Part shown: one piece after another, positions 2,233 through 53,695 of the stretch
Numbering within the stretch: position 1 is the first letter of the stretch
How the letters are laid out: each line of letters starts with the position of its first letter
Position numbers and translations under genes: made by a program
Notes under the pieces: model-generated
The model's database searches: none
What the model was told of the DNA's origin: nothing
What the model saw: the letters and a program-made list of their open reading frames with translations, nothing else
Sequence record: PP180005
Origin: Escherichia phage mEp554
Direction: 5' to 3' (one strand)
DNA: 53,846 nt

Positions 2233-2246
2233 TTGCTTATCCTCAA

Positions 2247-2423: not shown

Positions 2424-2854
2424 TATTGCCCCCAGCGTTTTATAAATTCCTCGTTTAACTTCGTATCGCCAGACCACTGAACACCGTGTTCAGCGCCGAA
2501 CGAGTAGATCAGTTCGATTAATTCGCTAAATTCTGCTTTACTCATCCGGCTGGTTGACGTACCAAGCACAACAAAACCTGATTTATCAAGGTTAGGGACA
2601 ACGCCATATTTCTTAAGCCCGGCAGTAAATACCGCTTTCCAGTCTTCAGGGGACAGCTTTTTGCCGTACCAATTAACCTGATCGCTAACGTCTGTCAGCA
2701 GCGCCCAAAGCAACGCGTTTTGACTCAGCGACCGGGTTTTCTCCTGGATGGTAATTACCAGCGGGCTTTTGCTATCTGGCTGGATCTCTCTTATCTGCCT
2801 GACAGCATTTTCTTTCACGGCGTCGTTTACTATCTCAAATCTAATTTGCCTCAT
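2423..2854 (-). CDS. ninB: NinB/Orf-family recombination mediator
   Basis: 143 aa. Collinear with my recollection of lambda NinB (VITIQEKTRSLSQNALLWALLTDVS...VVPNL...GFVVLGTSTSRM...F..L.ELI..FG...GV.WS). Confidence 0.85.
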   Translation of the reverse strand: MRQIRFEIVNDAVKENAVRQIREIQPDSKSPLVITIQEKTRSLSQNALLWALLTDVSDQVNWYGKKLSPEDWKAVFTAGLKKYGVVPNLDKSGFVVLGTSTSRMSKAEFSELIELIYSFGAEHGVQWSGDTKLNEEFIKRWGQ

Positions 2855-3048
2855 GATACACCGTTACTATTTTTCCACTGCGCCCGCGCATACATGATCG
2901 CCCGCAAAGAAATTAGGCGCGAGCTTGTCATAAAAGCGCTTTTTAAGTACCTCATATCAACAACAACAGGCTTATCAGGATCGTCGCTGCGCATGTATTC
3001 CGCAATCGTGCTCAAGTCTTCAACTGTCAATTCCAATTCCCTGTTCAT
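2851..3048 (-). CDS. Hypothetical protein (65 aa from ATG 3048; ORF open to 3126)
   Basis: SD AAGGTGG 5 nt upstream of ATG 3048. Stop overlaps the ninB start. Confidence 0.5.
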   Translation of the reverse strand: MNRELELTVEDLSTIAEYMRSDDPDKPVVVDMRYLKSAFMTSSRLISLRAIMYARAQWKNSNGVS

Positions 3049-3058
3049 GATCGCCACC

Positions 3059-3265
3059 TTACACAATCCGCATTGTGTTTCGTAATTCACCGCGCAACGC
3101 CTGTAAAGCGTAACGAATCGACACAAAAGCCCGGTTAAATTTTACGTGCCTGTATTTGCGCATTAGTGGCGGCGTATAAACCATCGCGCCGCAAGGATCG
3201 CATGGGAATTTAAAGTGAGATTCGTCAATAAACGTTTCAACTGAATAAAAAATTACCCGTCTCAT
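3059..3265 (-). CDS. Hypothetical protein (68 aa)
   Basis: Start overlaps the upstream stop (ATGA at 3262-3265), suggesting translational coupling. Confidence 0.5.
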   Translation of the reverse strand: MRRVIFYSVETFIDESHFKFPCDPCGAMVYTPPLMRKYRHVKFNRAFVSIRYALQALRGELRNTMRIV

Positions 3266-3819
3266 AATTCCAACCCCGTTTCGCCGTTAAGTTTTTCGAT
3301 CTCAAATATTGGTTTATCCGGTAGCAGGCCGTTATTTTTCCGGTATTCGTTCAGGCGTCTGTCAAAGTCAAAAGCCAAATCATTAGCGTGACCGAAGCGC
3401 CCAGGTTTAAACAATGAGTAAAAATTTACCCCGTGTCGGTTAGGGTCAACGCAAAGCGTTTCATCAATAACCATTAAACGCAGAGTACGAGATAGATAAT
3501 TCCACGGAATACCCGTTTCCGCGCTAATGTCGCGCATACGCTTTTTAACGCTGTAGTCACCAAATAACGCAGCGACGCGCTCGCGACGTTCAGCATATAA
3601 CTGTTTAATACGATAACCAAGCAGTCGGCGGCGGCGTCCAAAACATGTATACACGCGCTCGACGATGCCGTTTTTTATTAAGTGTTTAATTGTCTCAGGC
3701 ATGATTCCATCCTTATCATACCCGACCAATAATCCTGTTTTCTGGCGTAACTGGTGCATTGTTGCGATGCCATCAAGTTCAAGGATATTGATAATTTTTG
3801 TTTCAATTTCAGCGCTCAT
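3262..3819 (-). CDS. Hypothetical protein with probable N-terminal winged-helix (185 aa)
   Basis: ORF track. Lies downstream of the DnaB-like gene in the same operon. No confident family assignment. Confidence 0.6.
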   Translation of the reverse strand: MSAEIETKIINILELDGIATMHQLRQKTGLLVGYDKDGIMPETIKHLIKNGIVERVYTCFGRRRRLLGYRIKQLYAERRERVAALFGDYSVKKRMRDISAETGIPWNYLSRTLRLMVIDETLCVDPNRHGVNFYSLFKPGRFGHANDLAFDFDRRLNEYRKNNGLLPDKPIFEIEKLNGETGLEL

Positions 3820-3895
3820 TTTTAGCCTCGTTTAAAACGCGATAACAGCCACCAGAAAGCGGTAAACTTTCCGGCAAGCTGTTTGCTAATATTGA

Positions 3896-5311
3896 TTAAA
3901 AAGATGCGTTATTCTGATTGTTTCGTTGGTTAAAACGGCTTGTGCGATGATTCATTGACTGAATGCACGCTGCGGCTGCGCGCGCCTGGTCGCATGGCAA
4001 GATATTACCGTTGTCATCAAACCGCTGGTAAACAGTTCCAGACTTACCATGACGGTTTTTTGACACAATAATTTCCATATATTCGCGGGCAACAGACTGT
4101 TCATCGTAATATCCATCTCGGTAAACCATGATTATCCTGTCGGCATCTTGCTCAAGGTTGCCCGAATCACGAAGATCAGAATTGTTAGGTCGCTTGTTCG
4201 GTCGTTCCTCAACACGGCGGGACAATTGCGCCAGCGCCAACACTGGTACACGCAATTCTTTAGCCATCATCTTTAACGACCACGACAATTGCCCTACGGC
4301 GAGATCATGACGTTCGGCCTTAGCCAGCTTCATTAACCCGATATAGTCAATCATTACCATACCCAGGTTCGGGTGATCCTGCTTCATCCGTTCCGTTGTT
4401 GCGCGTATTTCCTCAACCGTTAACTGCGACGCGTCAACGATCCACACATCAAGATTAGCAAGTGCGCTCATACCCTGGCCGACATGCGCCCACCCCTCAT
4501 CATCAAGTTTTACAGGATTGCGCAGGCAGTCGGTTGATAAATTACCAGCGCCCGCGATAGCGCGCTCAGTCATCTGATCGAGTGACATTTCAAGCGTGAA
4601 GAACAAAACGCCAACCCGCTGATCCTTGCTGCCAGGGTAAGGTCGCTCAGCGGCAGCGCGGGCAATTGTCAGCGCCAACGCAGATTTACCAGACCCAGGG
4701 CGTCCGGCGAGAAGTACCAAATCAGTAGCGTTAATGCCGCCCAACATTTCGTCGAGTGGTTCTATACCTGTTTTGATGTTGTCAGAGTTGACACCGCATT
4801 CCATGCGCTTGCTTAAAACGTCAGTATATTCCTGTACCGCATCGCGCAACAGAACAGGAATGATCTTGTCTTTCGTTACCTTTAATTTTGAATACCGGGA
4901 ATCAAAATCTTTCATCGTCTCTTTGACGACCTCAAGCGTCCCAGTCTCCAGTTTGTAGCGCATATCGTCGATTAGTTCCAACATCTGCCGCCGCTGGTGC
5001 TCTTCACGTAGTAACTGTGCGTATCCCTTCAGGTTGGCAGCAGACGGGCACGAACGCGCCGTTTGCATTAGCGGTACGAAATTTTCATTACCAATCTCAT
5101 CACCGACCAGCAACGCATCTATGAGATTTCTGTTTCTGGCTTGTGCCCGGATAACTTCAAACGCACGTTTATAGAGCGGGATCGTGAACACTTCAGGATC
5201 AAGTGTGGCGAGAACATCTTGCGCGTTAGGAGTTAGGCCACCTAACAGCAGCCCGCCGATAACTGACGCCTCACGTTCCTGCCGTAGTGAGTTTATTTGC
5301 TCAGTTACCAT
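3896..5311 (-). CDS. dnaB: Replicative DNA helicase, DnaB family
   Basis: 471 aa. Walker A GRPGSGKSALAL, DnaB-type C-terminal motifs (MIDYIGLM, LAQLSR, RDSG..EQDAD) and an N-terminal DnaB-like domain. Confidence 0.9.
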   Translation of the reverse strand: MVTEQINSLRQEREASVIGGLLLGGLTPNAQDVLATLDPEVFTIPLYKRAFEVIRAQARNRNLIDALLVGDEIGNENFVPLMQTARSCPSAANLKGYAQLLREEHQRRQMLELIDDMRYKLETGTLEVVKETMKDFDSRYSKLKVTKDKIIPVLLRDAVQEYTDVLSKRMECGVNSDNIKTGIEPLDEMLGGINATDLVLLAGRPGSGKSALALTIARAAAERPYPGSKDQRVGVLFFTLEMSLDQMTERAIAGAGNLSTDCLRNPVKLDDEGWAHVGQGMSALANLDVWIVDASQLTVEEIRATTERMKQDHPNLGMVMIDYIGLMKLAKAERHDLAVGQLSWSLKMMAKELRVPVLALAQLSRRVEERPNKRPNNSDLRDSGNLEQDADRIIMVYRDGYYDEQSVAREYMEIIVSKNRHGKSGTVYQRFDDNGNILPCDQARAAAACIQSMNHRTSRFNQRNNQNNASF

Positions 5312-5329
5312 TATGTTATTTCCTCCGGT

Positions 5330-6448
5330 TTACAAAATGGAAAATTCAGGGTAATAAACAAAGCGCCCGATCTCACCATGATCCGGGCTGTAAATTATTA
5401 CCGCCGCCAGGCGACGCGACCGCCAGCCGCCATTAGTTGAATAGGCATCTTTACCAGCTAACGTGCCGTGATACTCAACAACGCCCAACGATGATTCAAT
5501 CATCCGTTGATGATGCCAGTGCCCGCAGTGGGCGTAAACCGCCGCAGACTTGCCGAAATCCTCGCGCCAGTCAGCTACGCAAGCAGCCAATAAGTTTTCC
5601 GGCTTTTTGATAGTGTGCCCGTGGTGGTAAGCAAGGAATGTTTTCCCGTACTGCGTGTGGTGGACGATAGTAGGTGACACATCAACCGTCACGCGCGGTT
5701 CATCTTCGTAAAAAGCCGCCAGCGCCGCACGTAGCCAAATCATACCAGACTGGTCATGATTCCCTGATAACACCTGGATTTCCACATCCTTATGATTTAG
5801 CAACATCTTTCCTACAGCCCGCCGGACAGACCGGATCGCCACATAAACAAGTTTTGCGTAGCGCGAATCGCAATCAAGAACGTGATTGCTTGATGGCGTC
5901 ACTGGTAACAATCCGTCAGTGTGAAGCAGGTCGCCCCCGAGAAGAAGAACCGCTTTTTCACTCATAGGGGCAGCGCCAACTGCGTAGTCAAAGAAGTCAT
6001 TTAACACGCGTTCAGCGATCCCAGTGTCGTAGCTCTCGCCGCATTCAGCTTTATGAGCAAGCGCCCCGATGTGCAGGTCAAACACCGGATAAAGTGCCAG
6101 GCTTTTTTGAAAATCAATTTCAGGCACTGGCACGGCCTCCGCGCGTGGTATTTCTTCCGTGAATGCGTCGCGGGCCGCTTCCATTAACTGTTCCATTTCG
6201 TCGCGGTCACGGGCTGTTTTAATCCAGCGCATGATCACATTGCCATCCTTATCGACTAGCAACGACTCGCCATTAACACCAAAACCAGGAGCGCGGCGCG
6301 TTGATAATAAACCGCGTTTTGCCAGTTTTGCTCCCAGGCGTTCGACATTGCGTTTAGACATGCCGTACTTTTCAGCGATCTGTTTGTACGTTAATCCGTT
6401 GTTATATTCAGCGATCAATTGCTCATCACTGATTTTTCTTTGCGACAT
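5330..6448 (-). CDS. HTH domain fused to a calcineurin-like metallophosphoesterase
   Basis: Start at ATG 6448 (SD GGAGGG). N-terminal HTH (LTYKQIAEKYGMSKRNVERL). Phosphoesterase motifs DLHIG, GGDLLHTDG, SGNHDQ, HHGH, GHWHH. Confidence 0.7.
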   Translation of the reverse strand: MSQRKISDEQLIAEYNNGLTYKQIAEKYGMSKRNVERLGAKLAKRGLLSTRRAPGFGVNGESLLVDKDGNVIMRWIKTARDRDEMEQLMEAARDAFTEEIPRAEAVPVPEIDFQKSLALYPVFDLHIGALAHKAECGESYDTGIAERVLNDFFDYAVGAAPMSEKAVLLLGGDLLHTDGLLPVTPSSNHVLDCDSRYAKLVYVAIRSVRRAVGKMLLNHKDVEIQVLSGNHDQSGMIWLRAALAAFYEDEPRVTVDVSPTIVHHTQYGKTFLAYHHGHTIKKPENLLAACVADWREDFGKSAAVYAHCGHWHHQRMIESSLGVVEYHGTLAGKDAYSTNGGWRSRRLAAVIIYSPDHGEIGRFVYYPEFSIL

Positions 6449-6481
6449 AATGTTAATCCCTCCAGTTAACAAAATGTATAC

Positions 6482-7225
6482 CTATTTGCACGCAAAAAGT
6501 TCAGACACCCAAAGTTGACCCTTAGCAGTAAATAGTGATTGTACATAACCAGCATCCGAACATTTTACCACTCCATAGCCTTTGTCTAAAAACCACTGTT
6601 TGAACATGCGCCCGCCGCGCCTAATTCGCGTATCGTACACGTCAACCTGTTCAAGTTTTTTGTTGAGTTGCGTAGCAGTCATACCCAAAGGCTTGGCAAC
6701 CTGTGTAGCGTTGCGATACTGTTTGTTTCTCACAATCGCATCACAGACAGCCGCTTTTGGCGCTAATTCCTTGTTTTCCAGCTCCAGCCGTTCAGCTTCT
6801 TTCTGTGCTAATAGTTTTTGTTCCACCTCATCAGCCCATGCGCGAGCCGCAGCAACCGGGTCAGTGAAATCCGGCAAAGCTGGTTTAAAACCGTAATGTC
6901 CATTTTCACGCAAAGCAGGGAGAACATCCTCGCACACCCAATCCTGGAAGCGCTCAGCCGATTCTATTTTTGATCGCATCACAAGGCGGTAAACATCTGA
7001 TTCATGGATTAGCGTTACGCCTTGCGGGATTGGAGCGAATCCCAAATGTTCCATTTCAGAACATTTTATTTTTATCAATGACTTACAGTGATCTTTGATA
7101 GCTTTTTGTGGCGTAGCGTAACCAAGCGCCCGCGCCACATCCATTGCAACAAAAGCAGGTTTACCATCATAAATTACAGCAGTGATTTTATTGTCATCAA
7201 AATTAAAGCACATCAACTCAGACAT
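6482..7225 (-). CDS. Antirepressor-like protein, Bro-N plus KilAC-type domains
   Basis: Start at ATG 7225 (SD GGAG). Bro-N signature (FVAMDVARALGY...HCKS...SDVYRLVMRSK...AERFQDWVCEDVLPALRENG). C-terminal half is KilAC-like. Confidence 0.75.
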   Translation of the reverse strand: MSELMCFNFDDNKITAVIYDGKPAFVAMDVARALGYATPQKAIKDHCKSLIKIKCSEMEHLGFAPIPQGVTLIHESDVYRLVMRSKIESAERFQDWVCEDVLPALRENGHYGFKPALPDFTDPVAAARAWADEVEQKLLAQKEAERLELENKELAPKAAVCDAIVRNKQYRNATQVAKPLGMTATQLNKKLEQVDVYDTRIRRGGRMFKQWFLDKGYGVVKCSDAGYVQSLFTAKGQLWVSELFACK

Positions 7226-40924: not shown

Positions 40925-41063
40925 ATCTCACACCATCGCGCTTGTATGGTTCGCCATCAGCAAACGGGATTAACTCATCGTTTGCCACCATTCGATTGAA
41001 CCAGTCTTTCAGAGCAACCAGGGAGAACCGGATCCCGTAACTGTGCAATTCGCGCCACCTCAT
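40914..41063 (-). CDS. 49-aa micro-ORF (MRWRELHSYGIRFSLVALKDWFNRMVANDELIPFADGEPYKRDGVRYGR)
   Basis: ATGA overlap with the stop of the 84-aa gene. Confidence 0.45.
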   Translation of the reverse strand: MRWRELHSYGIRFSLVALKDWFNRMVANDELIPFADGEPYKRDGVRYGR

Positions 41064-41314
41064 TTATGTGCCCCTTTCACTCCACAATGTCGGTTGTATT
41101 CAAGGTGGTCAATAATTAGCCAAACCTTCAAATCTTCACTGAACAGCCGCCAATCAGGGTTTATGTCCATCTTGTAACCGTAACCATCGCGTAACTTTTT
41201 GGGGTAAACCTCTTTTTTAAGAAAAGCATCAAGTAATTGTTTTCCTTTCTTGATGATCCGTTCTTGGGCGTTTTTCTGTGCTTTCAGGTTTTTGCCAATC
41301 ATTACCAATTTCAT
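41060..41314 (-). CDS. 84-aa protein, possibly a RelE/YoeB-superfamily toxin fold
   Basis: ORF track. Loose resemblance to YoeB/RelE (RIIKKGKQLLDAFLKK ... WRLFSEDLKVWLIIDHLEYNRH). Not verified. Confidence 0.6.
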   Translation of the reverse strand: MKLVMIGKNLKAQKNAQERIIKKGKQLLDAFLKKEVYPKKLRDGYGYKMDINPDWRLFSEDLKVWLIIDHLEYNRHCGVKGAHK

Positions 41315-41334
41315 AACTCACCCCACGCAATCAA

Positions 41335-41490
41335 TCAGTTGACCACTTTCAGGAAGAAATCACGGTATTCATCTTCTTTTGCATTCATCATGAATTGACC
41401 GTATTTGAACGCATCATCAAAACCCTTCACAATCGCAACTTCCACCTGTTCGAATGCTTTGTTTAGCATTACCACTACATAGCGTTCCAT
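41335..41490 (-). CDS. 51-aa protein (MERYVVVMLNKAFEQVEVAIVKGFDDAFKYGQFMMNAKEDEYRDFFLKVVN), first gene of the moron operon
   Basis: ATG 41490 with SD AAGGGGG. The ORF-track version (to 41661) lacks an SD. Confidence 0.5.
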   Translation of the reverse strand: MERYVVVMLNKAFEQVEVAIVKGFDDAFKYGQFMMNAKEDEYRDFFLKVVN

Positions 41491-41561
41491 ATTGGCCCCC
41501 TTTGTTGGTACTGCTTTCTCTTCTTGCTTTCTGTATACATCTTGTTGCGTCCTGTGTGAAG

Positions 41562-41584
41562 CCATTTCGTAAACTGGGTATAAT
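41562..41584 (+). promoter_or_regulatory. Candidate promoter for the distal tail genes: 12-mer variant CCATTTCGTAAA (41562-41573) with -10 options TAAACT (41570-41575) or TATAAT (41579-41584)
   Basis: Read directly. GTGAAGCCATTT is shared with the tape-measure upstream region. Confidence 0.45.
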
Positions 41585-41659
41585 TCTTGTGACGAAGTTC
41601 TCATTTTTCGCGTAGAAGCGCGTAAAGATGTATGCAATATGTAACTTATAGGGGGAATC

Positions 41660-42013
41660 ATGCCGGAAGTTTTCAGATGGACGCCGCAAAGAAGCTACAG
41701 CGTGACCAGGGAACCAAATGTGTCGGTCGTTAAACTTGGTGATGGTTATGAACAGCGCCAGGCGAAAGGGATTAACACGTTGCTTGATAGCTACACCCTG
41801 GTTTTTAAAGGCAGTAGCGCAGGATGCGGTGATAGTGGGAACGTGGCGATCCAGGCAGAAGCATTCTTGAGGGCGCGCGGCGCTGTCGAGGCTTTTTACT
41901 GGTCGCCGTCTATGGATGGTGTGCAAAGGCTTTTTGTTTGCCGTAGCTGGAGTATGACAAAGGACGGGCCTGTATACACGCTAAACGCAACATTTGAGCA
42001 AGTTGTTGGCTAG
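41660..42013 (+). CDS. Minor tail protein M (lambda gpM-like)
   Basis: 117 aa. FRW.P......P.V..V.LGDGY.QR ... ends FEQVV, as I recall for lambda M. Confidence 0.8.
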   Translation: MPEVFRWTPQRSYSVTREPNVSVVKLGDGYEQRQAKGINTLLDSYTLVFKGSSAGCGDSGNVAIQAEAFLRARGAVEAFYWSPSMDGVQRLFVCRSWSMTKDGPVYTLNATFEQVVG

Positions 42014-42024
42014 TGGGGGTTAAT

Positions 42025-42210
42025 ATGTACGGGACTTGTGTAGTTGACAAAACTGACGCATTTACATTATTTGACGACTATGAGATCAACGACCTTACTG
42101 TAAAGGCTGACAATGGCGATACATGGTATCTTCATGATGTTGGTGACGGGTATGTGGGATGCAGATCCAGGGAAGGCAAGGAGGTTTTATTTTTGGTTGA
42201 TGGCGTGTAA
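42025..42210 (+). CDS. Hypothetical protein (61 aa)
   Basis: ATG 42025 after GGGGG. Confidence 0.5.
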   Translation: MYGTCVVDKTDAFTLFDDYEINDLTVKADNGDTWYLHDVGDGYVGCRSREGKEVLFLVDGV

Positions 42211-42214
42211 TAAC

Positions 42215-42240
42215 AACCCCGCTTCGTGCGGGGTTTTCTT
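42215..42240 (+). terminator. Rho-independent terminator (one of two near-identical copies)
   Basis: AACCCCGC-TTCGT-GCGGGGTT followed by TTCTT. Near-duplicate at 50718-50745. Confidence 0.8.
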
Positions 42241-42241
42241 G

Positions 42242-42379
42242 TTAGTAGTGAATATACAGCAAACTCATTGGGTGAGCGTGCGCCATATTATTGGCTATCG
42301 CCGCCCAGTCCCAATCTGCAGCATGAGCGCCAAATACTATCAGTCCCATTATTATTAGCGCCAAAACTTCTATTTTCAT
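42242..42379 (-). CDS. 45-aa secreted micro-protein (signal peptide MKIEVLALIIMGLIVFGAHA, then ADWDWAAIANNMAHAHPMSLLYIHY)
   Basis: SD GGTGA. AxA cleavage motif. Confidence 0.5.
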   Translation of the reverse strand: MKIEVLALIIMGLIVFGAHAADWDWAAIANNMAHAHPMSLLYIHY

Positions 42380-42389
42380 AATCTGTCAC

Positions 42390-42638
42390 CTATAAGTTAT
42401 CACGCAGATAATTAACGCCCTTATCAGTGACGAATGAATGATTAACCTGGTTTTCATCCGTCATAATGATGAATAACTTTTCTTGTAGGTACTTAGCTTT
42501 CGGGTACAACGTTAAACAAACCTGATACAAAATCCCGCGCTCAATCAGCAAATCAATAAATTCGTGTTCATGATAACCGATGATGCGGGCGGCCTGTTTC
42601 AACGTGTACACATAATCACCGTGATTGCGCCGCCCCAT
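42390..42638 (-). CDS. 82-aa KilAC-like DNA-binding domain protein
   Basis: ORF track. YTLKQAARIIG...F..LL.ERGILY...P...Y...LF...T.KG..YL pattern recalled for KilAC. Confidence 0.5.
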   Translation of the reverse strand: MGRRNHGDYVYTLKQAARIIGYHEHEFIDLLIERGILYQVCLTLYPKAKYLQEKLFIIMTDENQVNHSFVTDKGVNYLRDNL

Positions 42639-42647
42639 GCTGCCGCC

Positions 42648-42998
42648 TTATTTATCGAATGCGCTCAGGTTATCGATGCAGAAGTCTTTCGCAGCTTTTT
42701 CGTATTCGCGTTTTGCTTGCGGATTGTCTGCCGGGAAACCTTTTGCGTGTATTTCACCAGGGCAAGCCTGATCCATAGAATCTGCAAAGTTAACATTGGC
42801 GTTGAAGTTAATATCTTTCGGGTTCATCTCTTCCACCTTATCCGGCACTTGTACAGGAATAACATAATAATCACGAGCATTAGACCAACAGCGGAGCAAT
42901 TCGCAACCTTCATTGCGCGCTGATTCGAATGTGTCAAATAGTCCCATGCTTTCCCATTCACATTTATCAGTCCACACGTCTAATCTGTATTTTTTCAT
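42648..42998 (-). CDS. Hypothetical moron protein (116 aa)
   Basis: ORF track. Confidence 0.55.
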   Translation of the reverse strand: MKKYRLDVWTDKCEWESMGLFDTFESARNEGCELLRCWSNARDYYVIPVQVPDKVEEMNPKDINFNANVNFADSMDQACPGEIHAKGFPADNPQAKREYEKAAKDFCIDNLSAFDK

Positions 42999-43298: not shown

Positions 43299-44003
43299 AT
43301 GCGCAACATACCTACAGAGATGATTATTGATTCCGTCGATGCCGGAGTCGGCGCTGTAATTGACTTGTTTGAATTAGACCTCACGCCCCTGGGTGGCGAG
43401 GTTATCCGCTTCCATTCCGGCGCTAATGGCTATTACGGCCCGGTTATCTGGAAGGGCTTGGCTTACAACAGCTACCCGATCGAGGCTACTGGCTTCGAAA
43501 TGAAAAACGAAGGTGTTTACTCACGCCCACAAATGGTAGTGGCAAACATTGGCGGCCTAATCACTGGGATGAATAACGATTTTAACGACCTGCGAGGAAT
43601 GAAGGTTACGCGCCGCCAGGTGGAAGTAAAATACCTGGACGCCGTCAACTTCCCCAATGGCAACCCGGATGCAGATCCATCTATTGAGGCTGTATCTTTT
43701 TACGTCGTTGAGGCGATGAGCGAAGAAACAGCCGACCAGGTGCAATATGAACTGTCAACGCCAATTGACGCTGACAAGGCGGTTATTCCAGGGCGCACAA
43801 TCCTCGCTGACGTTTGCCAATGGCAATACCGTGGCGACGGTTGCGGATACAGTGGCGGCCCTGTAGCTACTGAAAAAGACGAATCGACCAGCGATCCTAA
43901 GCTGGATAAGTGCAGCCACCGCCTGAGCGGTTGCCGTTTGCGTTTTCCGCGCCCGAACCCGTTACCAATTTCATGTTTCCCTGGATCAAGCAAGGTCGGT
44001 TAA
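43299..44003 (+). CDS. Minor tail protein L (lambda gpL-like)
   Basis: 234 aa. Collinear with my recollection of lambda L (RF....N......W.G..Y...PI...GFE...G...RP.....N ... C.W.YRGD.CGYSG ... DKCS..LSGC..RF). Confidence 0.85.
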   Translation: MRNIPTEMIIDSVDAGVGAVIDLFELDLTPLGGEVIRFHSGANGYYGPVIWKGLAYNSYPIEATGFEMKNEGVYSRPQMVVANIGGLITGMNNDFNDLRGMKVTRRQVEVKYLDAVNFPNGNPDADPSIEAVSFYVVEAMSEETADQVQYELSTPIDADKAVIPGRTILADVCQWQYRGDGCGYSGGPVATEKDESTSDPKLDKCSHRLSGCRLRFPRPNPLPISCFPGSSKVG

Positions 44004-45224: not shown

Positions 45225-48200
45225 ATGAGTAGCGGCGGCGGCAAAGCCAAAACACCAACATTATTAAACGATAACCTGTATCATAAACAGTTTTATCGTG
45301 TTTTAGACATTCTCAGCGAGGGGCCGATATACGGACCTGTAAACCAGAAAGCGCCATTAAACAGCGTAATGCTTAATGACACGCCTATCACTGACGCCAA
45401 CGGTAATACATCAGTCCCCGGCGTTAGCGTGGCGTGGCGCAATGGTACTGCTGACCAGTCACCAATCAACGGCTTCAACGCCATTGAATCAACCGTTATT
45501 GTCAACGCAAAAGTAACTCACGATACGCCAATAATCAGGACCGTTTCAGATCCAAACGTTAACCGCGTAAGGCTGAATCTTGGCGTTGATTCTCTGGTTC
45601 AGTCAGATGATAAGGGCAATCAATACAATACATCAGTTACGTTGATGGTTGACGTTAAGCCTTCATCTTCAACAACGTGGTCACTGGTTAAGGATATTCA
45701 CATTGGCCCGGGTAAGCAAAGCGGCGAGTACCTCGAAGCGCACATCATCAAAGCACCGGATGAAAAACCGTTTGACATTCGCGTTCGTCGCGTAACGCCG
45801 GACAGCACTGGCGATCTACTTCACAATGATACCAGGTGGAGCAGTTACAGCGAGATAATCGACGATAATTTGTCTTATCCTCATACCGCTGTAGCAGGCG
45901 CGGTAATTGACCACGATCAGTATACTGACACGCCGACACGTACTTATCACATGCGCGGCCTTATTGTTGACGTGCCTGATAACTACGACCCGGAAACGCG
46001 CACGTACTCAGGTTTATGGCTTGGTGGCTTTAAAAAGGCGTACACCAACAACCCTGCGTGGCTTTTCCGGTATCTGGTTAAAAATGAACGCTTCGGGCTT
46101 GCCCGCCACGCTGGTTACATCGACGTTGATGACGGCGCACTGTATACGCTTTCTCAATACTGCGACCAGTTGGTAAACGACGGTTACGGCGGCCTTGAAC
46201 CACGCATGACGCTTAACGCTTACATCACGGAGCAAATGAGCGCCCGCGACTTGCTGGATAACATTGCAGGCATGTTCCGTGGTATCGCATTATGGGACGG
46301 GCAGCGCCTTACGGTGATGATTGATGCACCGCAGGATCCAATTGCCACCATCACAAATGCAAACGTTGTTGATGGTGCGTTTACTCGTTCAAGTATCGCC
46401 CGCGCAGAATCTTACAACGCCGTGATTGTGTCATGGACTGACCCGGAAAACGGTTGGGAACAATCAAAAGAATACGTGGCAGATGATGAACTGATCGCCC
46501 GCGATGGTTACAACGAAACCACGTTGGAGGCTTTCGGTTGCACGTCACGCGGGCAGGCGTACCGCGCTGGCAAATGGCTGATAGAAACAGCAAAACGCGA
46601 ACCCTCAAAATTCACGTTTAAAATGGCCCGTGACGCAATTCACTTCACACCAGGGGATATTATCGAGATACTCGACAATAACCGCGCAGGCGCTCGTTTA
46701 GGCGGTCGCATAGTGGCGAATAATGGGAAAGTTATAACTGTAGACAAAGTTGATTCTGACCTGGTGGCGGCTGGTGACACTATCAGCTTACTGGACAGCG
46801 ACGGCAAGTTTAAAAAACATCAGATCACTGGGGTTAACGGAAACAATATTACCCTTGCGTCAGCGCCCGCATGGATTCGTAACGGAACCGTGTTTGCTGT
46901 ATCGACTGAATCTGCAAAACCCGTTCTGTGTCGAATTACCAGCGTAGCGGAAACCGAAAACAACAGCGTGTACACCATCGAGGCTGCACAGCACGATCCG
47001 CATAAACAGGCTGTAGTTGATGAAGGCGCAATCTTCGAGGTAAACAACGACACGCTTAATCACTTCCGCGTGCCGAACATTGAAAATCTGAAGGTGTTAA
47101 ACGTTGGTTCTGAGACAGTACAATGCCGCGCAACATGGGAAACACAGACGACAACGCATCGCCTGACCTTTGAAATACGCGTATATAACACCGAAGGCCG
47201 CATTGTGGCAACTTATGAAACCACGAATTACCGCTATGATTTTTATGGCCTCGACGCTGGCAGCTACACTATTGGTATTCGCGGGCGTAATGACACTGGC
47301 ATGAAGGGTGCGGAAAGTATTGTGGACCTGGTTATTGGTGCGCCAGCGGCCCCGATTGGAGTCAATTGGGTTCCTGGTGTCTTCCAGGCAACGGTATATC
47401 CGATCAGCAAAACAACCCTGACCACTGACACGGCATATGATTTCTACTACTCAGGTGAAAATCAGATCACTGACCCGTCAAAAGTAACCACGCTGGCACA
47501 GTTTACCGGGCGCGGCTACCAATGGACTTTTGGAGGCATGAACACGGGACACACCTATTACGTTTATGTGCGCACGCGTAATGCCTTTGGTGTGTCAGAC
47601 TTCGTTGAGGTATCAGGTAAACCAACTGAAAACTTCGATGAAATCAGCGACTACGTGATGAAGGATGTCATGGAGTCAGAACAGTTCAAAGATATGATTG
47701 GCGACATTAAAGATCTTGGCGACCGCGCTGATCTTATCGAAAGCGCTACAAATGACCTGAAAAACGCTACTGACAACCTCAAAACTGCAACTGATAACCT
47801 GACAAACATCACTGACGATTTGAGGGTTGAAACTGACAACCTGACAAACATCACTGACGAATTGAGGACTGATACGGACGGCCTAATCACAGAAACAGGG
47901 GCCATAAAAGCTGACACAGACACACTGAAAAAAGAAACGGAAGATCTCTATAAAAAGGTTGAGGAAAACGCCGACGATATTGGACAGCATGAGGCAAGAA
48001 TAGATTCTCTTGAGGTATCTAGCGAAAAAGTTGGCAGTGAACTGGCGCAAGCAAAAGCAAGCCTGCAAAACGCGTCATTGGCGCTTATCAACAACTCCCT
48101 TGCTCAGACCAACACGCGGGTTACTCTCACTGCACAGTACAAGAAAGGCAGGACAGAGACGAAGGCTGAAATTGACCGCATCGACAACGTTATTGCTGAA

Positions 48201-50711
48201 GAGAAAAAGGCTACAGCGGAATCACTGGAAACCATCACAGCAGAAATGAACACGATGGATTCTAATCTTAAGGGTCAGATCTCCAACGTGGAACGCGCAG
48301 TGGCTGACGAATCAAGCGCCCGCGCTGAAGCAATCAACGGCGTTAACGCATCAATAAGCAATCTCGACAAGAAAACCGACGCCAGCGTCAATAGACTTGA
48401 TCAGGCCATCGCAGACGAAACGAACGCCCGCACACAGGCAGTCAGTGACGTTAACGCGAGTGTCTCATCGCTAGACAAGAAAACTGACGCCAGCGTGAAA
48501 CGCCTGGATCAAGCAATAGCAGACGAAACCAGCGCAAGAACTGAAGCCATCAGCGGTGTGAATGCGTCAATTTCCACGCTTGATAGCAAGGTAACAAGCA
48601 ATGTAACGCGCATAGATAAATCTATCGCCGACGAAACGAAGGCCCGCACTGACGCAATCAGCGGGGTCAAAGCAAGTATTGACACACTTGAAGGTAACAC
48701 CAATTCAGAAGTTAAACGCCTTGATCAGTCGATTGCCGACGAGGCCAGCGCCCGCGCCCAGGCTGTGAGCGATGTTAAAGCATCAATAAGCAACCTTGAA
48801 AGCAAAACTGACGCCAGCGTTTCACGTCTCGACAAGGCAATTGCAGACGAAACACAGGCAAGAAGCGCTGCAATAACAGATGTTAAGGCTGATTTGACAA
48901 CGCTTGAAAACAGCACAAACGCCAGCGTTAAACGTTTGGATCAGGCTATTGCAGACGAATCAAGCGCCCGCGCTGAAGCAATCTCAGGCATTAACGCGGA
49001 GATCGGCAGCATTGAAAATAGCGTTGACAAAAACAGCGATGATATAAATCAGACAAAAGCAAGCCTGCAAAACGCATCTATTGCTCTGATTAACAACTCA
49101 ATCGCTCAAACCAACACGCGTGTTACGCTTACGGCCCAATACAAGAAAGGACGCAAAGAAACCAACGCGCAAATTGACCGTATTGACAATGTTATCGCAG
49201 AAGAGAAAAAGGCTACAGCCGAATCAATTGGCGTGGTAAAAGCATCGATCACGGATCTTGATAAGAAAACCGATGCCAGCGTTTCGCGTCTCGATAAAGC
49301 AATTGCAGACGAAACCAACGCACGCAGCCAGGCGGTGAGCGACGTTAACGCAAGCATTTCAGCGCTCGACAAGAAAACCGATGCCAGCGTTAAGCGTCTG
49401 GATCAAGCTATTGCAAATGAAACCAGCGCACGCAGCGAGGCAATCAGCGGCGTGAATGCAAGCATTAACACCCTTGAAAGCAACACCGAATCCGAAGTTA
49501 GCAGACTGGACCAGGCAATTGCTGACGAGGCCAGCGCCAGAGCGCAAGCCATCAGTGGTGTGAATGCGTCAATTTCAACCCTTGATGGCAAGGTTACAAG
49601 CAACGTGACCCGCATCGACAAAGCCATTGCAGACGAAACGAAGGCACGCACAGACGCAATCAGTAGCCTCAATTCATCGCTTACCAGTACGATTAACTCG
49701 AAGGTGTCTGAGGTATCAACGGCGCTTTCTACACATGAAGCATCAAGCGCGGAAAAATTCGGCCAGATCTCAGCGTCTTTCGAATCTGTAAACTCAAGTA
49801 TTACAGAATGGTCGCAGGCTATGGCAACGGCTGACGAGGCATTGTCAACCAAAATTGATCAGTTAACAGTAACCGTTAACGGTAACAAAACGGCGATCGA
49901 GACGACATCGAACGCGCTAACCGATTTCAAGGGTAACGTTGATGCGTCGTATTCCATCAAGCTGGCAACCGATAACAACGGCATGAAGTACGCTACAGGT
50001 ATGTCGCTTGGCCTGACTGGTAACGGTACAAACTTTCAATCGCAGTGTATTTTCCTTGTTGACCGCTTCGTGTTAATGACAGCAGCAAACGGCACATATA
50101 CAACGCCTTTCTATATGTCTAATGGTGCAATGTATGTGAAAGAAGCGTTTATTAAAAACGCATCAATAGGAGAAGCCAAAATTGCAAACGCTGCAATCAC
50201 ATCAGCCAAAATCGCACAGCAAATACAGTCAACAGAATTTGTTAAAAACTCAAAAGGCTGGATGATTAACAAAGATGGGTGGGCTGAGTTCAATAGCGTT
50301 ACGGTGAGGGGTACTGTGTATGCTACGGACGGTAAGTTCGCCGGTTCACTTGAGGCGAAAACCTTTATCGGTGATGTTGCAAATATGTATACAGGAGGTG
50401 ACGTTAGCAGGTTAAATGATGGCGTACTGGAAAAAACAATTACATACAACGATACATCTAACGCAGCGTACAGACGACACATCTGCGTTATGGCAAACGT
50501 TAAAGGTTTTGGTGGCTGTACAATAACTATCGGAAGTTCAGAAAAATCCCTTTCTATGAGTGGAGACGAACGCCTTGTCATGCATTCAGCGGCAATAACT
50601 ACCAGTGGCGTTACAGTTAAAATTAAGGTATCCGCTCAAAATGGTAGGGGTGCATATATAAATTCGCCGACCGTCATTGTGTCGCGCGGTTCTGGTTCAT
50701 TCTCAGGATAA
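45225..50711 (+). CDS. Central tail fiber / host specificity protein J with a greatly expanded coiled-coil repeat region
   Basis: 1828 aa. The N-terminal about 800 aa are collinear with lambda J up to the FN3 domain. The C-terminal part (MKYATGMSLGL...FLVDRFVL) is also J-like. About 770 aa of repeats lie between. Confidence 0.85.
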   Translation: MSSGGGKAKTPTLLNDNLYHKQFYRVLDILSEGPIYGPVNQKAPLNSVMLNDTPITDANGNTSVPGVSVAWRNGTADQSPINGFNAIESTVIVNAKVTHDTPIIRTVSDPNVNRVRLNLGVDSLVQSDDKGNQYNTSVTLMVDVKPSSSTTWSLVKDIHIGPGKQSGEYLEAHIIKAPDEKPFDIRVRRVTPDSTGDLLHNDTRWSSYSEIIDDNLSYPHTAVAGAVIDHDQYTDTPTRTYHMRGLIVDVPDNYDPETRTYSGLWLGGFKKAYTNNPAWLFRYLVKNERFGLARHAGYIDVDDGALYTLSQYCDQLVNDGYGGLEPRMTLNAYITEQMSARDLLDNIAGMFRGIALWDGQRLTVMIDAPQDPIATITNANVVDGAFTRSSIARAESYNAVIVSWTDPENGWEQSKEYVADDELIARDGYNETTLEAFGCTSRGQAYRAGKWLIETAKREPSKFTFKMARDAIHFTPGDIIEILDNNRAGARLGGRIVANNGKVITVDKVDSDLVAAGDTISLLDSDGKFKKHQITGVNGNNITLASAPAWIRNGTVFAVSTESAKPVLCRITSVAETENNSVYTIEAAQHDPHKQAVVDEGAIFEVNNDTLNHFRVPNIENLKVLNVGSETVQCRATWETQTTTHRLTFEIRVYNTEGRIVATYETTNYRYDFYGLDAGSYTIGIRGRNDTGMKGAESIVDLVIGAPAAPIGVNWVPGVFQATVYPISKTTLTTDTAYDFYYSGENQITDPSKVTTLAQFTGRGYQWTFGGMNTGHTYYVYVRTRNAFGVSDFVEVSGKPTENFDEISDYVMKDVMESEQFKDMIGDIKDLGDRADLIESATNDLKNATDNLKTATDNLTNITDDLRVETDNLTNITDELRTDTDGLITETGAIKADTDTLKKETEDLYKKVEENADDIGQHEARIDSLEVSSEKVGSELAQAKASLQNASLALINNSLAQTNTRVTLTAQYKKGRTETKAEIDRIDNVIAEEKKATAESLETITAEMNTMDSNLKGQISNVERAVADESSARAEAINGVNASISNLDKKTDASVNRLDQAIADETNARTQAVSDVNASVSSLDKKTDASVKRLDQAIADETSARTEAISGVNASISTLDSKVTSNVTRIDKSIADETKARTDAISGVKASIDTLEGNTNSEVKRLDQSIADEASARAQAVSDVKASISNLESKTDASVSRLDKAIADETQARSAAITDVKADLTTLENSTNASVKRLDQAIADESSARAEAISGINAEIGSIENSVDKNSDDINQTKASLQNASIALINNSIAQTNTRVTLTAQYKKGRKETNAQIDRIDNVIAEEKKATAESIGVVKASITDLDKKTDASVSRLDKAIADETNARSQAVSDVNASISALDKKTDASVKRLDQAIANETSARSEAISGVNASINTLESNTESEVSRLDQAIADEASARAQAISGVNASISTLDGKVTSNVTRIDKAIADETKARTDAISSLNSSLTSTINSKVSEVSTALSTHEASSAEKFGQISASFESVNSSITEWSQAMATADEALSTKIDQLTVTVNGNKTAIETTSNALTDFKGNVDASYSIKLATDNNGMKYATGMSLGLTGNGTNFQSQCIFLVDRFVLMTAANGTYTTPFYMSNGAMYVKEAFIKNASIGEAKIANAAITSAKIAQQIQSTEFVKNSKGWMINKDGWAEFNSVTVRGTVYATDGKFAGSLEAKTFIGDVANMYTGGDVSRLNDGVLEKTITYNDTSNAAYRRHICVMANVKGFGGCTITIGSSEKSLSMSGDERLVMHSAAITTSGVTVKIKVSAQNGRGAYINSPTVIVSRGSGSFSG
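48288..49712 (+). repeat. Eleven copies of a 108-bp (36-aa) tandem repeat in two blocks (48288-49034; 49227-49712) within a roughly 1-kb segmental duplication
   Basis: Unit V.RLDQAIADE..AR..A.S.VNASIS.LD.KTDAS. A duplicated 174-bp segment at 48054-48227 and 49056-49229 (KASLQNAS.ALINNS.AQTNTRVTLTAQYKKGR...). Confidence 0.85.
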
Positions 50712-50717: not shown

Positions 50718-50745
50718 AACCCCGCTTCGCGCGGGGTTTTCTTTT
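50718..50745 (+). terminator. Rho-independent terminator after J (near-duplicate of 42215-42240)
   Basis: AACCCCGC-TTCGC-GCGGGGTT followed by TTCTTTT. Confidence 0.8.
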
Positions 50746-50992
50746 AGTAGTTGGCTACACAGTTCGACGGGCTACCGATGCGGCGCATATTGTGATCGAG
50801 TTCATGACACCATTGCCCAGTATACGGCAGTTTTTCAGTGTCATAGACAAGATGACCACTACCATCATAAACAATATCATGTGGAATTACTCCGCTATTT
50901 GGCAGGTTGTGCAATGCGGCCTCTTTGTCAACAGCACAGCCAGTAAGAGCAACAGCCGCAGCGAACAAAACCACTTTGAACACGTTTTTCAT
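50744..50992 (-). CDS. Moron lipoprotein (82 aa); superinfection-exclusion (Cor/Llp-like) role suggested only by position
   Basis: Signal peptide with lipobox LTGC. Lies between J and the tail fiber gene on the opposite strand. Confidence 0.7.
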   Translation of the reverse strand: MKNVFKVVLFAAAVALTGCAVDKEAALHNLPNSGVIPHDIVYDGSGHLVYDTEKLPYTGQWCHELDHNMRRIGSPSNCVANY

Positions 50993-51169: not shown

Positions 51170-53695
51170 ATGATTTATACGACTGGAACAATTGCCATCA
51201 ACGGCAATACTGTTACAGGCACGGGAACAAACTTTTCCGCGCCGCTTTCTCTCATTCGTGTAGGTTGCACGCTCATTGCCATCGGCAACCAGGTGCAGAT
51301 CTTTACAGTTACAGAAATTAAAAACGGTACTGAACTGTCAGTAACGCCAGCGGCTAACCCTGCGATCCCTGCCGGAACAAAATTTAGTATTCTGCTATCT
51401 GACTCGATCTCAGTTGATGGGCTTGCTCAGGATGTAGCCGAAACTCTGCGTTACTACCAGGGCAAGGAAACAGAGATTGCAACAGCCGTTGAATGGTGGA
51501 ACGAGTTCGGCGGTGATGGTCAGATGGAACAACTTCTTGCCGACATTCGCGCAGAAACAGCGCAATCAACCGCCAATGCTCAAAAAACAGAATCAGACAA
51601 AAACGCGGCAGCAGCATCAAAAACGGCAGCAGCAAACTCAGCCACAGCAGCAAAAGCGTCACAGGATGCAGCAAAAGCCAGCGAAACGTCAGCAAGCAAC
51701 AGCAAAACGGCGGCGGCTACCAGCGAAACCAATGCGGCAAAATCAGCAGCCGATGCGCTTAACTATCGCAACCAGGCGCAGGGCATTGTGGGGACTGATA
51801 TAGGTTTGGGTGCAAATCGCCGCGACTGGCCTGACTGTAACGATCCGACAGGATATATAGGTTTTTGCCGTGCCGAAGCGTCAACAGCAAAAAACTTTCC
51901 GTCGATTGCATCAGGAGAGCTTTACCTTGTTGGTTGGTTGGCGCGCGGTGACGGTGCAACTATTAACGGCTGTTTCGTTGGTACTGTTACCCGTTCACTG
52001 TATACCTACAGCTATAACAACGCAGACAAATCAGTTGCGTGGACGCGTCACGCAAGAAAAGACGAAGTAGATCGCTTTTCTCAAATAGGTAGCGACCAGA
52101 CCCGTATTTACGCTGGCAACGGTAAAACATATTTAGAAATTGGCAACGATCGTGCATGGGGTGTTTATAATGGCGAGACTGGTCAATGGAAACCGTTAGA
52201 TCTTGCGCAAGGCGGTACATCTGGACGTAATTCAGGACAGGCGCGTACAAACCTTGAGGTTATGCACGAGAAAAAATCAGCTCTCAATTCCACTAATATT
52301 AATACGCTCACTGGTGAGTATTCTGGTTTTTATTACCAGGCATCAAATGTAGGCGCTACGGCAGAGTTAGGTTATCCAGTAGCAGGCGCGGGAGCATTAC
52401 TTGTTATAAAAAACGGCGCAAATAGTGCATCAGGATGTACGCAGCTCTATTTCCCTTACAATGCTGTAAATGGCGCATTTTATATGCGCCAATATATCCT
52501 TCAATCTTCCTCTGCTGGCTGGGAGTGGACTTCATGGAAAAAATTTCAGTCACTTGATTTTGCTGATAGCCCACAATTTGCCAATCTCAATCTTGTAATT
52601 TCTTCGGATAATGAAACCACTAACGGAGGTATACTGCAAAGCATACTCAACGGTACAACAGGAGCGCAAAGAGCCAGAACGCGCATTTACACCGAGTTTA
52701 GGGGTGATGGTAAGGCGTGGGCAACAACTCATCTACAGAGTGGCAGCAGTAATAAATATGCAGGATTGAGCGAAGACGGAGATTTTGCTTTAAGTACAGG
52801 TGATTTTGTCGCCAGAAGTGCACGATTATCATCAAACGTAAGCAATCCATTAACTTTGACGAGCGCACACCCAACAATTAAATTTGATGAGACTGACAGA
52901 CCTGAAGGGTCGCCGGACTACGCTTTTATCTGTGATGGTGGGAACTGGCGTATTGAAAGAGATCATTGGGATACATCAAAAGCCAAAGATTGCATCTCAT
53001 ATAGTTACAGCACACAAGAAATCAAAGTACCAAATCTGTCGACTCAAAATATTGCCATTCATGGAGGCAAAAGTTCCGGCGCTGGTACACTCCGGATTGA
53101 AAGTCAAAAAAGTTCAGACGAAGGGATGTATATTCGGGCATGGGGTAACGGTACGGATCGCTTGTCTGTTCTGGAGGTATCACTAGACTCAGGATTCCTA
53201 TTCTATGCCCAAAAAGTCGCTGACGGAAGCAAGGTACTAAGGGTTAACGGTTCAGTAACATGCACAACAGTTAACCAGACTTCAGATCGCGACCTAAAAG
53301 ACAACATTCAGGTTATAGGTGACGCTACTGAAGCAATCCGTAAAATGAACGGGTACACTTATACCCTTAAGGAAAACGGCCTGCCTTACGCTGGCGTTAT
53401 CGCTCAGGAGGTCATGGAGGCGCTGCCGGAAGCTGTTGGATCGTTCACCCATTACGGTGAAGAATTGCAGGGACCGACCGTTGACGGACGCGAGCTACGC
53501 GAAGAAACGCGTTATCTCAATGTTGACTACGCCGCAGTGACTGGTTTACTTGTCCAGGTGGCACGCGAAACAGATAACCGCGTAACCGAACTGGAAGAGG
53601 AAAACGCCATCCTACGCGCTAACATTGCTGAAATGGATGAGCGTATCGCAAAACTTGAAGCGCTTGTCAGTAAGTTGACAGAAGGCGAAAAATAA
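51170..53695 (+). CDS. Tail fiber with a C-terminal intramolecular chaperone (peptidase S74) domain
   Basis: 841 aa. Ala/Ser/Thr-rich coiled N-terminal shaft. C-terminal SDRDLKDNI...GYTYTLKENG...AGVIAQEV signature from nt 53282. Confidence 0.8.
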   Translation: MIYTTGTIAINGNTVTGTGTNFSAPLSLIRVGCTLIAIGNQVQIFTVTEIKNGTELSVTPAANPAIPAGTKFSILLSDSISVDGLAQDVAETLRYYQGKETEIATAVEWWNEFGGDGQMEQLLADIRAETAQSTANAQKTESDKNAAAASKTAAANSATAAKASQDAAKASETSASNSKTAAATSETNAAKSAADALNYRNQAQGIVGTDIGLGANRRDWPDCNDPTGYIGFCRAEASTAKNFPSIASGELYLVGWLARGDGATINGCFVGTVTRSLYTYSYNNADKSVAWTRHARKDEVDRFSQIGSDQTRIYAGNGKTYLEIGNDRAWGVYNGETGQWKPLDLAQGGTSGRNSGQARTNLEVMHEKKSALNSTNINTLTGEYSGFYYQASNVGATAELGYPVAGAGALLVIKNGANSASGCTQLYFPYNAVNGAFYMRQYILQSSSAGWEWTSWKKFQSLDFADSPQFANLNLVISSDNETTNGGILQSILNGTTGAQRARTRIYTEFRGDGKAWATTHLQSGSSNKYAGLSEDGDFALSTGDFVARSARLSSNVSNPLTLTSAHPTIKFDETDRPEGSPDYAFICDGGNWRIERDHWDTSKAKDCISYSYSTQEIKVPNLSTQNIAIHGGKSSGAGTLRIESQKSSDEGMYIRAWGNGTDRLSVLEVSLDSGFLFYAQKVADGSKVLRVNGSVTCTTVNQTSDRDLKDNIQVIGDATEAIRKMNGYTYTLKENGLPYAGVIAQEVMEALPEAVGSFTHYGEELQGPTVDGRELREETRYLNVDYAAVTGLLVQVARETDNRVTELEEENAILRANIAEMDERIAKLEALVSKLTEGEK

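Follow-up and report, generated by a model that had tools for sequence, protein, structure and literature searches.

How does a lambda-type tail tip protein come to carry several hundred residues of repetitive sequence between two conserved modules, and what would such a stretch do for the phage? Gene J of Escherichia phage mEp554 raises this question. We analyzed the whole 53,846-nt stretch of DNA in sequence record PP180005 (the window), in which J is a single open reading frame (ORF) whose product was identified by exact-sequence look-up as WWQ70720.1, host specificity protein J of Escherichia phage mEp554. Between the Ig_J_second domain of this protein, which ends at residue 811, and its Phage_Tail_Tip domain, which starts at residue 1557, lie 745 residues without a Pfam assignment, here called the shaft. 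We consider it likely that the shaft is a single-pass, parallel, trimeric helical rod that has been lengthened by in-frame repeats and that evolves via unequal recombination.

Gene J and the anatomy of its shaft

J was assigned to phrog_31, "central tail fiber J," in PHROGs. The N-terminal hub and the two Ig/FN3 domains match Pfam families with E-values of 6e-36 to 2e-16, and residues 1–851 align to lambda gpJ (8iyk; phmmer E-value 1.6e-181), while for the C-terminal part of the protein the best Foldseek matches are the lambda central tail fiber structures 8xcj and 8xck. The genes upstream follow the same order as in lambda: tape measure (TMP_3), M (Phage_min_tail), L (Phage_tail_L), K (NlpC/P60 and JAB), I, and then J, with the I homolog identified from annotation in relatives. 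Based on its hub, its prism and receptor-binding domain (RBD), and this gene order, J appears to be a lambda-type tip attachment protein, or central tail fiber. mEp554 is one of six "mEpimmI" coliphages and needs LamB for infection; J has been found by mass spectrometry in virions of mEp021 (PMC11893012). Clustering of C-terminal sequences places the mEp554 RBD in a type common to the LamB-dependent phages mEp044, mEp010, and mEp013, and this RBD has no match to Pfam Ig_GpJ_C.

The corresponding segment of lambda J, termed AHS, comprises residues 809–861 (~53 aa), forms a three-helix bundle, and rearranges on LamB binding (PMC11101478). An earlier reading of the window, made from its letters alone (the sequence-only reading), had proposed that this segment is expanded roughly tenfold in mEp554, to ~770 residues. 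The order of magnitude stands; at a measured 745 residues against ~53 in lambda, the expansion is ~14-fold, so that tenfold was slightly conservative.

Two kinds of repeat occur in the shaft (Table 1). The first is a run of heptads near its N-terminal end. Tandem Repeats Finder (TRF) detected a period of 42 (2.5 copies, 77% matches) and a period of 21 (5 copies) at 47755–47858, which bears out the 42-bp (14-aa) repeat noted earlier near 47790–47867; in the protein this repeat corresponds to ~10 TDNLxxx heptads. The second is a 36-aa unit, encoded by 108 nt and arranged in two arrays, blocks A and B, each of which is preceded by a copy of a duplicated head segment of ~58–68 aa. A hidden Markov model (HMM) built from ten 36-aa units found eight units at residues 977–1262 (the first two degenerate) and five at residues 1310–1488 (the first degenerate); ten of these are strong, one is moderate, and two are weak, with E-values reaching 1e-20 to 1e-25. 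This count agrees with the eleven 108-bp units in two blocks that the sequence-only reading had described. The blocks themselves are where that reading put them, although its register is shifted by 33 nt relative to ours, a choice that is arbitrary in a tandem array.

The blocks belong to a segmental duplication of ~1 kb, which had also been proposed from the letters and which we recovered with small shifts in coordinates. Its anchors, at 48052–48224 and 49054–49226, are 173 nt long, 82% identical, and spaced by 1002 nt. Self-identity is 0.55 at an offset of 1002, versus 0.50 at 894 and 0.40 at 1110. The closest unit pairs are found at an offset of 894 nt (residues 1047/1345 and 1083/1381, 76–78% identical) and at an offset of 1002 nt (residues 1119/1453, 75% identical). 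Because the best unit matches occur at both offsets, a simple in-register duplication of 1002 nt was ruled out, and units must have been gained or lost after the duplication.

Across 352 distinct units, Arg11, Asp13, Asp18, Glu19, and Arg23 are 97–100% invariant (e.g., J residues 1093–1105). Arg23 falls in the predicted core stripe of the unit and Glu19 flanks it. Rather than being purely hydrophobic, the core may therefore contain salt bridges that are buried or that connect helices; Glu19 and Arg23, for example, could form an i/i+4 pair.

The composition of the shaft is compatible with a helix, with no Pro, no Cys, 21 Gly, and seven aromatic residues in 745. Its hydrophobic periodicity is 3.53 in the heptad run, 3.60 in both 36-aa blocks, and 3.59 over the whole shaft, and no matching peak was found in two control regions, the hub and the Tail_Tip domain. 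At 3.6 residues per turn, 36 residues complete ten turns, and this 18/5 periodicity implies a nearly unsupercoiled bundle. A model of residues 806–1828 from AlphaFold2 (AF2) contains helices at residues 819–915, 940–1259, and 1271–1543 (97, 320, and 273 residues), separated by two short breaks, each immediately 5′ of a head segment. In a model of a shorter fragment, residues 1345–1828, the units are helical with a predicted local distance difference test score (pLDDT) of 85–96, and confidence drops across the last ~50 residues before the prism. Both runs were monomeric, and the 1023-aa run, with a predicted template modeling score (pTM) of 0.26, was used for secondary structure only. The coiled-coil shaft foreseen by the sequence-only reading is thus upheld by the absence of Pro and Cys, by the 3.5–3.6 periodicity, and by AF2 monomer helices with pLDDT values up to 96, and the shaft has the continuous helix-compatible sequence of a trimeric AHS. 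By analogy with the trimeric lambda J and the F2 pyocin AHS, we infer a parallel three-stranded assembly. Searched by sequence against the PDB, the shaft by itself gave weak matches only (T1 gp33, F2 pyocin, tektin, and coronavirus spike coiled coils); none of these matches provides a resolved structure of the 36-aa unit, residues 821–1172 of T1 gp33 being unresolved.

Length variation among relatives

If the tract is prone to recombination, as the sequence-only reading supposed, its length should differ between isolates, and this is the case. The J proteins of seven phages are 1828, 1828, 1727, 1707, 1504, 1478, and 1393 aa long and contain 13, 13, 13, 10, 5, 5, and 5 units. The shaft measures 745 aa in mEp044, as it does in mEp554, but ~624 aa in mEp010 and 411 aa in mEp515. 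The variation is quantized in a larger set of 124 alignable homologous proteins. Three flanking distances are invariant in 124/124: 37 aa from the end of FN3 to the heptads, 41 aa from the heptads to head A, and 85 aa from the end of the array to Tail_Tip. Only the heptad run and the array vary. The former is 31, 38, 45, 52, 66, or 80 aa long, in steps of 7 aa, while the array spans 211–545 aa in steps of 36 aa, with mEp554 at the maximum. The sizes of the two blocks vary independently of one another ([7,5], [4,5], [7,3], [9,2], and [10]).

A single event of this kind can be read from mEp021 and mEp515, a comparison that covers their J genes only. The J gene of mEp515 is that of mEp021 minus exactly 1002 nt (334 aa), and the two are otherwise identical. 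Identity holds in the 5′ register through nt 3395 and in the 3′ register from nt 3391 on, which places the crossover within 5 nt (nt 3391–3395), inside the paralogous units at residues 1119 and 1453. Both phages form plaques and both are OmpA-dependent (PMC11893012). Steps of whole units and a breakpoint within paralogous repeats, the marks of a length-polymorphic tandem repeat under unequal recombination, are both observed here, and the quantized lengths together with the exact mEp515 product support unequal homologous recombination as the mechanism.

The variable tract is maintained as coding sequence. Its frame is intact, and in comparison with mEp044 the ratio of nonsynonymous to synonymous substitution rates (dN/dS) is 0.073 in the shaft and 0.053 in the hub; the shaft is under purifying selection. 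Its length does not follow the receptor: inside each C-terminal receptor-domain cluster the shaft ranges over ~405–788 aa, and length is therefore uncoupled from receptor specificity.

Two observations concern the ends of the gene. The last ~350 nt of J (50364–50711), which encode its receptor-binding end, match "tail fiber protein" genes at 93–94% identity in Cronobacter phage CSP1 and in Escherichia phage CSP1C. These two phages have no further similarity to J at the stringency of that search, and the match suggests horizontal exchange of the RBD module. At the other end, mEp021 and mEp515 contain a 188-aa ORF (2942–3508 in each) that lies between I and J and overlaps the start of J; the mEp021 annotation describes its product as a putative HNH endonuclease. 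There is no such ORF in mEp554, mEp044, mEp010, or mEp013; in mEp554, I ends at 45210 and J begins at 45225.

The favored model and its alternatives

In the model that we favor, the shaft would join the tail-tip cone, made of the hub and the FN3 domains, to the distal beta-prism and the RBD. It would have grown to 745 residues by means of ~ten heptads and the two arrays of 36-residue units, and unequal homologous recombination between paralogous units would add or remove whole units or the 1002-nt block while leaving the flanks undisturbed. With three helices in series in a parallel trimer, ~690 helical residues at ~0.15 nm each would extend over ~100 nm, compared with an estimated ~8 nm for the lambda AHS and ~50–60 nm for the shortest relatives; tails of mEpimmI phages are ~130 nm long (PMC11893012). 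The much longer central fiber that the sequence-only reading predicted is thus a reasonable expectation. Shaft length would then set the reach of the RBD ahead of the tail tip, which might serve in crossing O-antigen or capsule layers to LamB or OmpA. The O-antigen layer, with a thickness of ~20–30 nm, protects outer-membrane proteins from phages (PMC10743462), so that a longer reach past surface glycans may plausibly be under selection. The part of the shaft adjacent to the prism probably joins in a rearrangement of the kind that the receptor triggers in lambda and in F-type pyocins.

Several points weigh against this model. The fiber is so far a prediction from sequence, and a long tip fiber goes unmentioned in the 2025 paper on the mEpimmI phages (PMC11893012). 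Assays of all six phages used K-12, a host devoid of O-antigen on which short and long forms both plate. A plain spacer rod leaves unexplained why small residues are conserved where the unit is predicted to be exposed. In addition, the AF2 monomers are compatible with more than one oligomeric state and helix orientation and with either a hinge or a fold-back at the breaks, and AF2 confidence is low across the heads and the breaks.

The alternative that survives best, though we regard it as unlikely, is that the 36-aa units are metamorphic modules and that receptor binding turns a large part or the whole of the array from a trimeric coil into a beta-prism. The fiber would shorten, pulling the tip to the membrane and supplying energy, and the number of units would set the stroke and the stored energy instead of the reach. 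A more specific version, to which we give slightly less credence again, has LamB binding trigger a prism, seeded by Tail_Tip, that spreads up the ~100-nm coil, reels the tip across the O-antigen or capsule, and provides energy for envelope penetration. A switch of this sort has been described in the F7 pyocin central fiber, in which a 163-residue coiled coil with the motif SxSxxMxxLxS becomes a beta-prism on target binding, and predictions extend it to 21 of 24 siphophage central fiber proteins (PMC12874032, a 2026 preprint).

The motif is abundant in the mEp554 shaft, with 45 matches versus 10.4 ± 3.0 in shuffled sequences. Per 100 aa, it occurs 6.0 times in the shaft, 3.6 times in the F2 pyocin switch segment, 0 times in the lambda AHS, 0.3 times in the mEp554 tape measure, and 0.5 times in other structural proteins of the window; Lpp has 0 and is illustrative only. 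Each unit contains a reversed motif at positions 7–17 and a forward motif at positions 22–32, so that orientation alternates along the array. On a wheel of 3.6 residues per turn, the L/M positions 9, 12, 27, and 30 fall in the core, while five of the six S positions (7, 17, 22, 24, and 32) and Ser28 are exposed and are at least 97% Ala, Ser, or Thr in the 352 distinct units. Ala15, at the remaining S position, is on the flank, and the burial pattern is largely that described for the switch. The last two units and the pre-prism stretch (residues 1403–1572) align weakly to the pyocin switch region, residues 916–1082 of 25vf_A, in phmmer (E-value 6e-5, score 25.9, high compositional bias), and a candidate prism seed, the Phage_Tail_Tip domain beginning at residue 1557, adjoins the shaft.

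However, the motif copies derive from one ancestral unit and amount to ~2–3 independent observations, not 45, and the homology to the pyocin region is weak, given its E-value and compositional bias. AF2 returned helix alone, with high confidence over the units, and no prism conformation appeared in either monomer run, which is a weak negative. Alleles with 4–12 detected units occur, and mEp021 and mEp515 both infect, so that stroke and energy are not tightly tuned; moreover, lambda and T5 reportedly show no switch of that extent (PMC12874032). A rearrangement confined to the vicinity of the prism, as in lambda, is more likely than a switch of much of the array.

It is improbable that the shaft, and in particular its duplicated heads, is a docking scaffold for side tail fibers, with the duplication doubling the docking sites. 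In F2 pyocin, three side-fiber trimers bind the AHS at a Gly-induced kink (PMC13455828), mEp554 has a side-fiber gene downstream of J at 51170–53695, and the heads are conserved, invariant in length, and modeled as helical with low confidence, all of which such a scaffold would accommodate. In Ur-lambda, though, side fibers join gpV/gpM through collar domains and not the shaft (PMC12617516), and forms with a single head exist, e.g., mEp515 and MagusPhagus.

We give even less weight to an antiparallel fold-back, in which the three helices would turn back at the two breaks to pack into one bundle and the fiber would have ~1/3 of the length that its residue count implies. The AF2 breaks at residues 916–939 and 1260–1270 are where the chain would reverse, and three passes would leave the RBD distal, but the helices are unequal (97/320/273 residues), the blocks vary independently, and single-block forms occur. 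Because a fold-back needs matched lengths and cannot lose a pass, the independent block sizes and the block lost from mEp515 point to helices in series. mEp515 is infectious on the same receptor despite having lost one break and a whole block, and with two passes its RBD would be aimed back toward the tail.

Finally, the notion that the repeat count is an assembly artifact, which is effectively excluded, or that the tract is a decaying nonfunctional insertion finds a basis in the SPAdes short-read assembly (PMC11893012), tandem repeats being a classic source of misassembly, but is contradicted by the intact frame and low dN/dS, by a longest exact direct repeat of 30 nt in 47640–49940 with units of 45–80% DNA identity, by the gapless alignment of the whole 2301-nt tract to mEp044 and the separately sequenced mEp021, and by a 12-unit version in the closed chromosome of E. 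coli UMNK88.

Flanking features and comparison with known systems

The minus strand of the J region contains ORFs at 47651–47923, 49106–49372, 49403–49852, and 50111–50581, which we rejected as genes: they have no PHROG matches, their boundaries shift among relatives, and the sense-strand dN/dS is 0.07. The sequence-only reading had taken long antisense ORFs to be spurious products of the repeats; they exist and do look spurious, but they are not specific to the repeats, as comparable stop-free stretches are also present beyond them. Minus-strand "terminators" within the repeats were likewise discarded as weak consensus matches that recur since the sequence repeats. Searches of the entire window found no Rfam family at gathering score and no tRNA.

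Elsewhere, the tail operon is split by a cluster of small minus-strand ORFs that resembles a moron island and is kept in relatives; a KilAC/ANT antirepressor domain is encoded by one of these ORFs (42390–42638). The lipoprotein gene directly downstream of J is probably that of the type-C Lpp superinfection-exclusion protein, which reportedly excludes LamB-dependent phages, including lambda (PMC11893012). If the J shaft is indeed ~100 nm long, the central fiber may outreach the side fibers, the reverse of the arrangement in Ur-lambda (PMC12617516).

Table 1. Features of gene J and its surroundings in the mEp554 window
Feature	Position in window	Strand	J residues	Basis or remark
Gene J, central tail fiber / tip attachment protein	45225..50711	+	1828 aa	Single ORF
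FNIII-A_GpJ		+	88–214	Pfam
Phage-tail_3		+	335–492	Pfam
Ig_J		+	609–707	Pfam
Ig_J_second		+	709–811	Pfam
Hub domains and two Ig/FN3 domains, lambda-like	45225..47657	+	1–811	Pfam, phmmer
Expanded alpha-helical shaft, counterpart of lambda AHS	47658..49892	+	812–1556 (745 aa)	Without Pfam domain
Heptad run, ~ten TDNLxxx heptads (21/42-bp DNA repeats)	47751..47960	+	~843–912	TRF, periodicity
First predicted helix break	47970..48041	+	916–939	AF2 non-helical, low pLDDT
Head segment A: anchor copy 1 and degenerate unit	48051..48254	+	943–1010	Repeat search 48052–48224; weak HMM unit 977–1010
Block A, seven 108-nt (36-aa) units, first degenerate	48255..49010	+	1011–1262	Repeat search, unit HMM
Inter-block linker, including second predicted helix break (1260–1270)	49011..49052	+		AF2
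Head segment B: anchor copy 2 and degenerate unit	49053..49256	+	1277–1344	Repeat search 49054–49226; HMM unit 1310–1344
Block B, four 36-aa units	49257..49688	+	1345–1488	TRF, repeat search, unit HMM
Conserved pre-prism stretch	49689..49892	+	1489–1556	Length invariant in 124 homologs
Phage_Tail_Tip beta-prism, counterpart of lambda central straight fiber	49893..50336	+	1557–1704	PF09327, E-value 2.5e-35
C-terminal RBD	50337..50708	+	1705–1828	AF2 beta domain, pLDDT ~90
Bidirectional terminator-like hairpin directly past J stop codon	50718..50738	both		Terminators annotated at equivalent place in mEp044 and mEp010
Cluster of small ORFs splitting tail operon	41060–42998	−		Between M-like gene (41660–42013) and L gene (43299–44003)
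82-aa lipoprotein gene, phrog_12984	50744–50992	−		Directly downstream of J
Side tail fiber, 841 aa, with C-terminal Peptidase_S74 intramolecular chaperone domain	51170–53695			Pfam, PHROGs
Tyrosine integrase (Arm-DNA-bind_3 and Phage_integrase)	186–1400			Left end; fits complete temperate phage genome

Differences in J size and the presence of repeats are already known for this group of phages: the mEpimmI paper remarks that J varies in size and has "repeats of different length (positions 950-1,475)" (PMC11893012). That paper and its supplement do not give the unit length, the periodicity, the heptads, the 1002-nt duplication, the quantized polymorphism, or the mEp021/mEp515 deletion. What is added here is a precise anatomy (heptads followed by 36-residue, 3.6-periodic units in two blocks that stem from a 1002-nt duplication), the quantized length, the purifying selection, and the uncoupling from receptor specificity. 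The relatives also form a natural allelic series, including a viable pair whose J genes differ by one 334-residue block, and this series bears on how a receptor signal passes along a long fiber and on the coil-to-prism switch in phages. For J-based engineering of host range, the series indicates that the shaft tolerates large in-frame changes in length. Should the array switch its fold after all, evolution could adjust stroke and energy through the number of units, an idea that the mEp021/mEp515 pair would make directly testable.

The nearest comparisons are with the J proteins of the other mEpimmI phages (mEp044, mEp021, mEp010, mEp013, and mEp515), which are products of the same gene in the same genome context. 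That of mEp044 is 94% identical to mEp554 J (90% at the DNA level), equal in length, and built on the same 13-unit layout. Outside the mEp group, the closest J protein is that of SPN3UB (~58% identity), in which the Pfam gap or shaft length measures 81 aa; in HK97 it is ~200 aa. In lambda the gap between the Pfam domains is 26 aa, compared with 745 in mEp554. The lambda AHS occupies the same position as the mEp554 shaft, between FNIII-2 and the beta-prism, and its flanks are homologous, but it lacks repeats and the motif SxSxxMxxLxS. mEp554 uses LamB as lambda does, even though its RBD lacks a match to Ig_GpJ_C. The precomputed Pfam annotation of homologs P0001–P0120 lists PF28217 and PF27241, which may be newer families that cover part of J, possibly the shaft.

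Long coils at this position are also found in more distant systems. In the F2 pyocin central fiber, a J-like hub is followed by a three-stranded coiled-coil AHS, described as "exceptionally long," and then by a beta-prism (PMC13455828). In F-type pyocins (PyoF10; 25vf/25vj) the coil is ~163 residues long and contains no tandem array, in contrast to ~690 helical residues in repeats in mEp554, while the switch motif is common to both. T1 gp33 and other J-like proteins of the Drexlerviridae contain related units at the same position, with the motif AIA-[DT]-ET-x-AR, and residues 880–1021 of T1 gp33 align to the mEp554 shaft (E-value 4e-6). The C-terminal 350 residues of T1 gp33 are too flexible to resolve, and AlphaFold3 predicts a length of ~37 nm (PMC11945409). 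Drexlerviridae units are divergent and 33–44 aa long, whereas those of the mEp phages are regular 36-mers, and the hubs are <30% identical. The J protein of Klebsiella phage vB_Kpn_K62PH164C2, encoded at 420–7109, is 2229 aa long, with ~25 divergent units and no Pro between residues 802 and 2134.

A profile of three units matched at least 150 clusters in 1.84 billion representative proteins. The metagenomic proteins P0121 (1922 aa), P0131 (2921 aa), and P0144 contain Pro-free, 3.60-periodic spans of 832–1179 aa, and P0123 contains one of 495 aa. In P0121, P0131, and P0144, as in the Klebsiella protein, whose 3.60-periodic span reaches 1333 aa, these spans consist of divergent AIA-x-ET-x-AR units 33–44 aa long. 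The Phage_Tail_Tip domain was found in P0121, P0144, and P0123, while P0131, with its 1179-aa span, has no J-type Pfam match at E ≤ 1e-4. In J-like metagenomic proteins of 1922–2411 aa, such spans reach 1056 aa. Since longer shafts exist in other J-like proteins, mEp554 is not an extreme case. Its shaft is instead a well-behaved case of a known phenomenon, the modular coiled-coil shaft whose length drifts by gain and loss of repeats.

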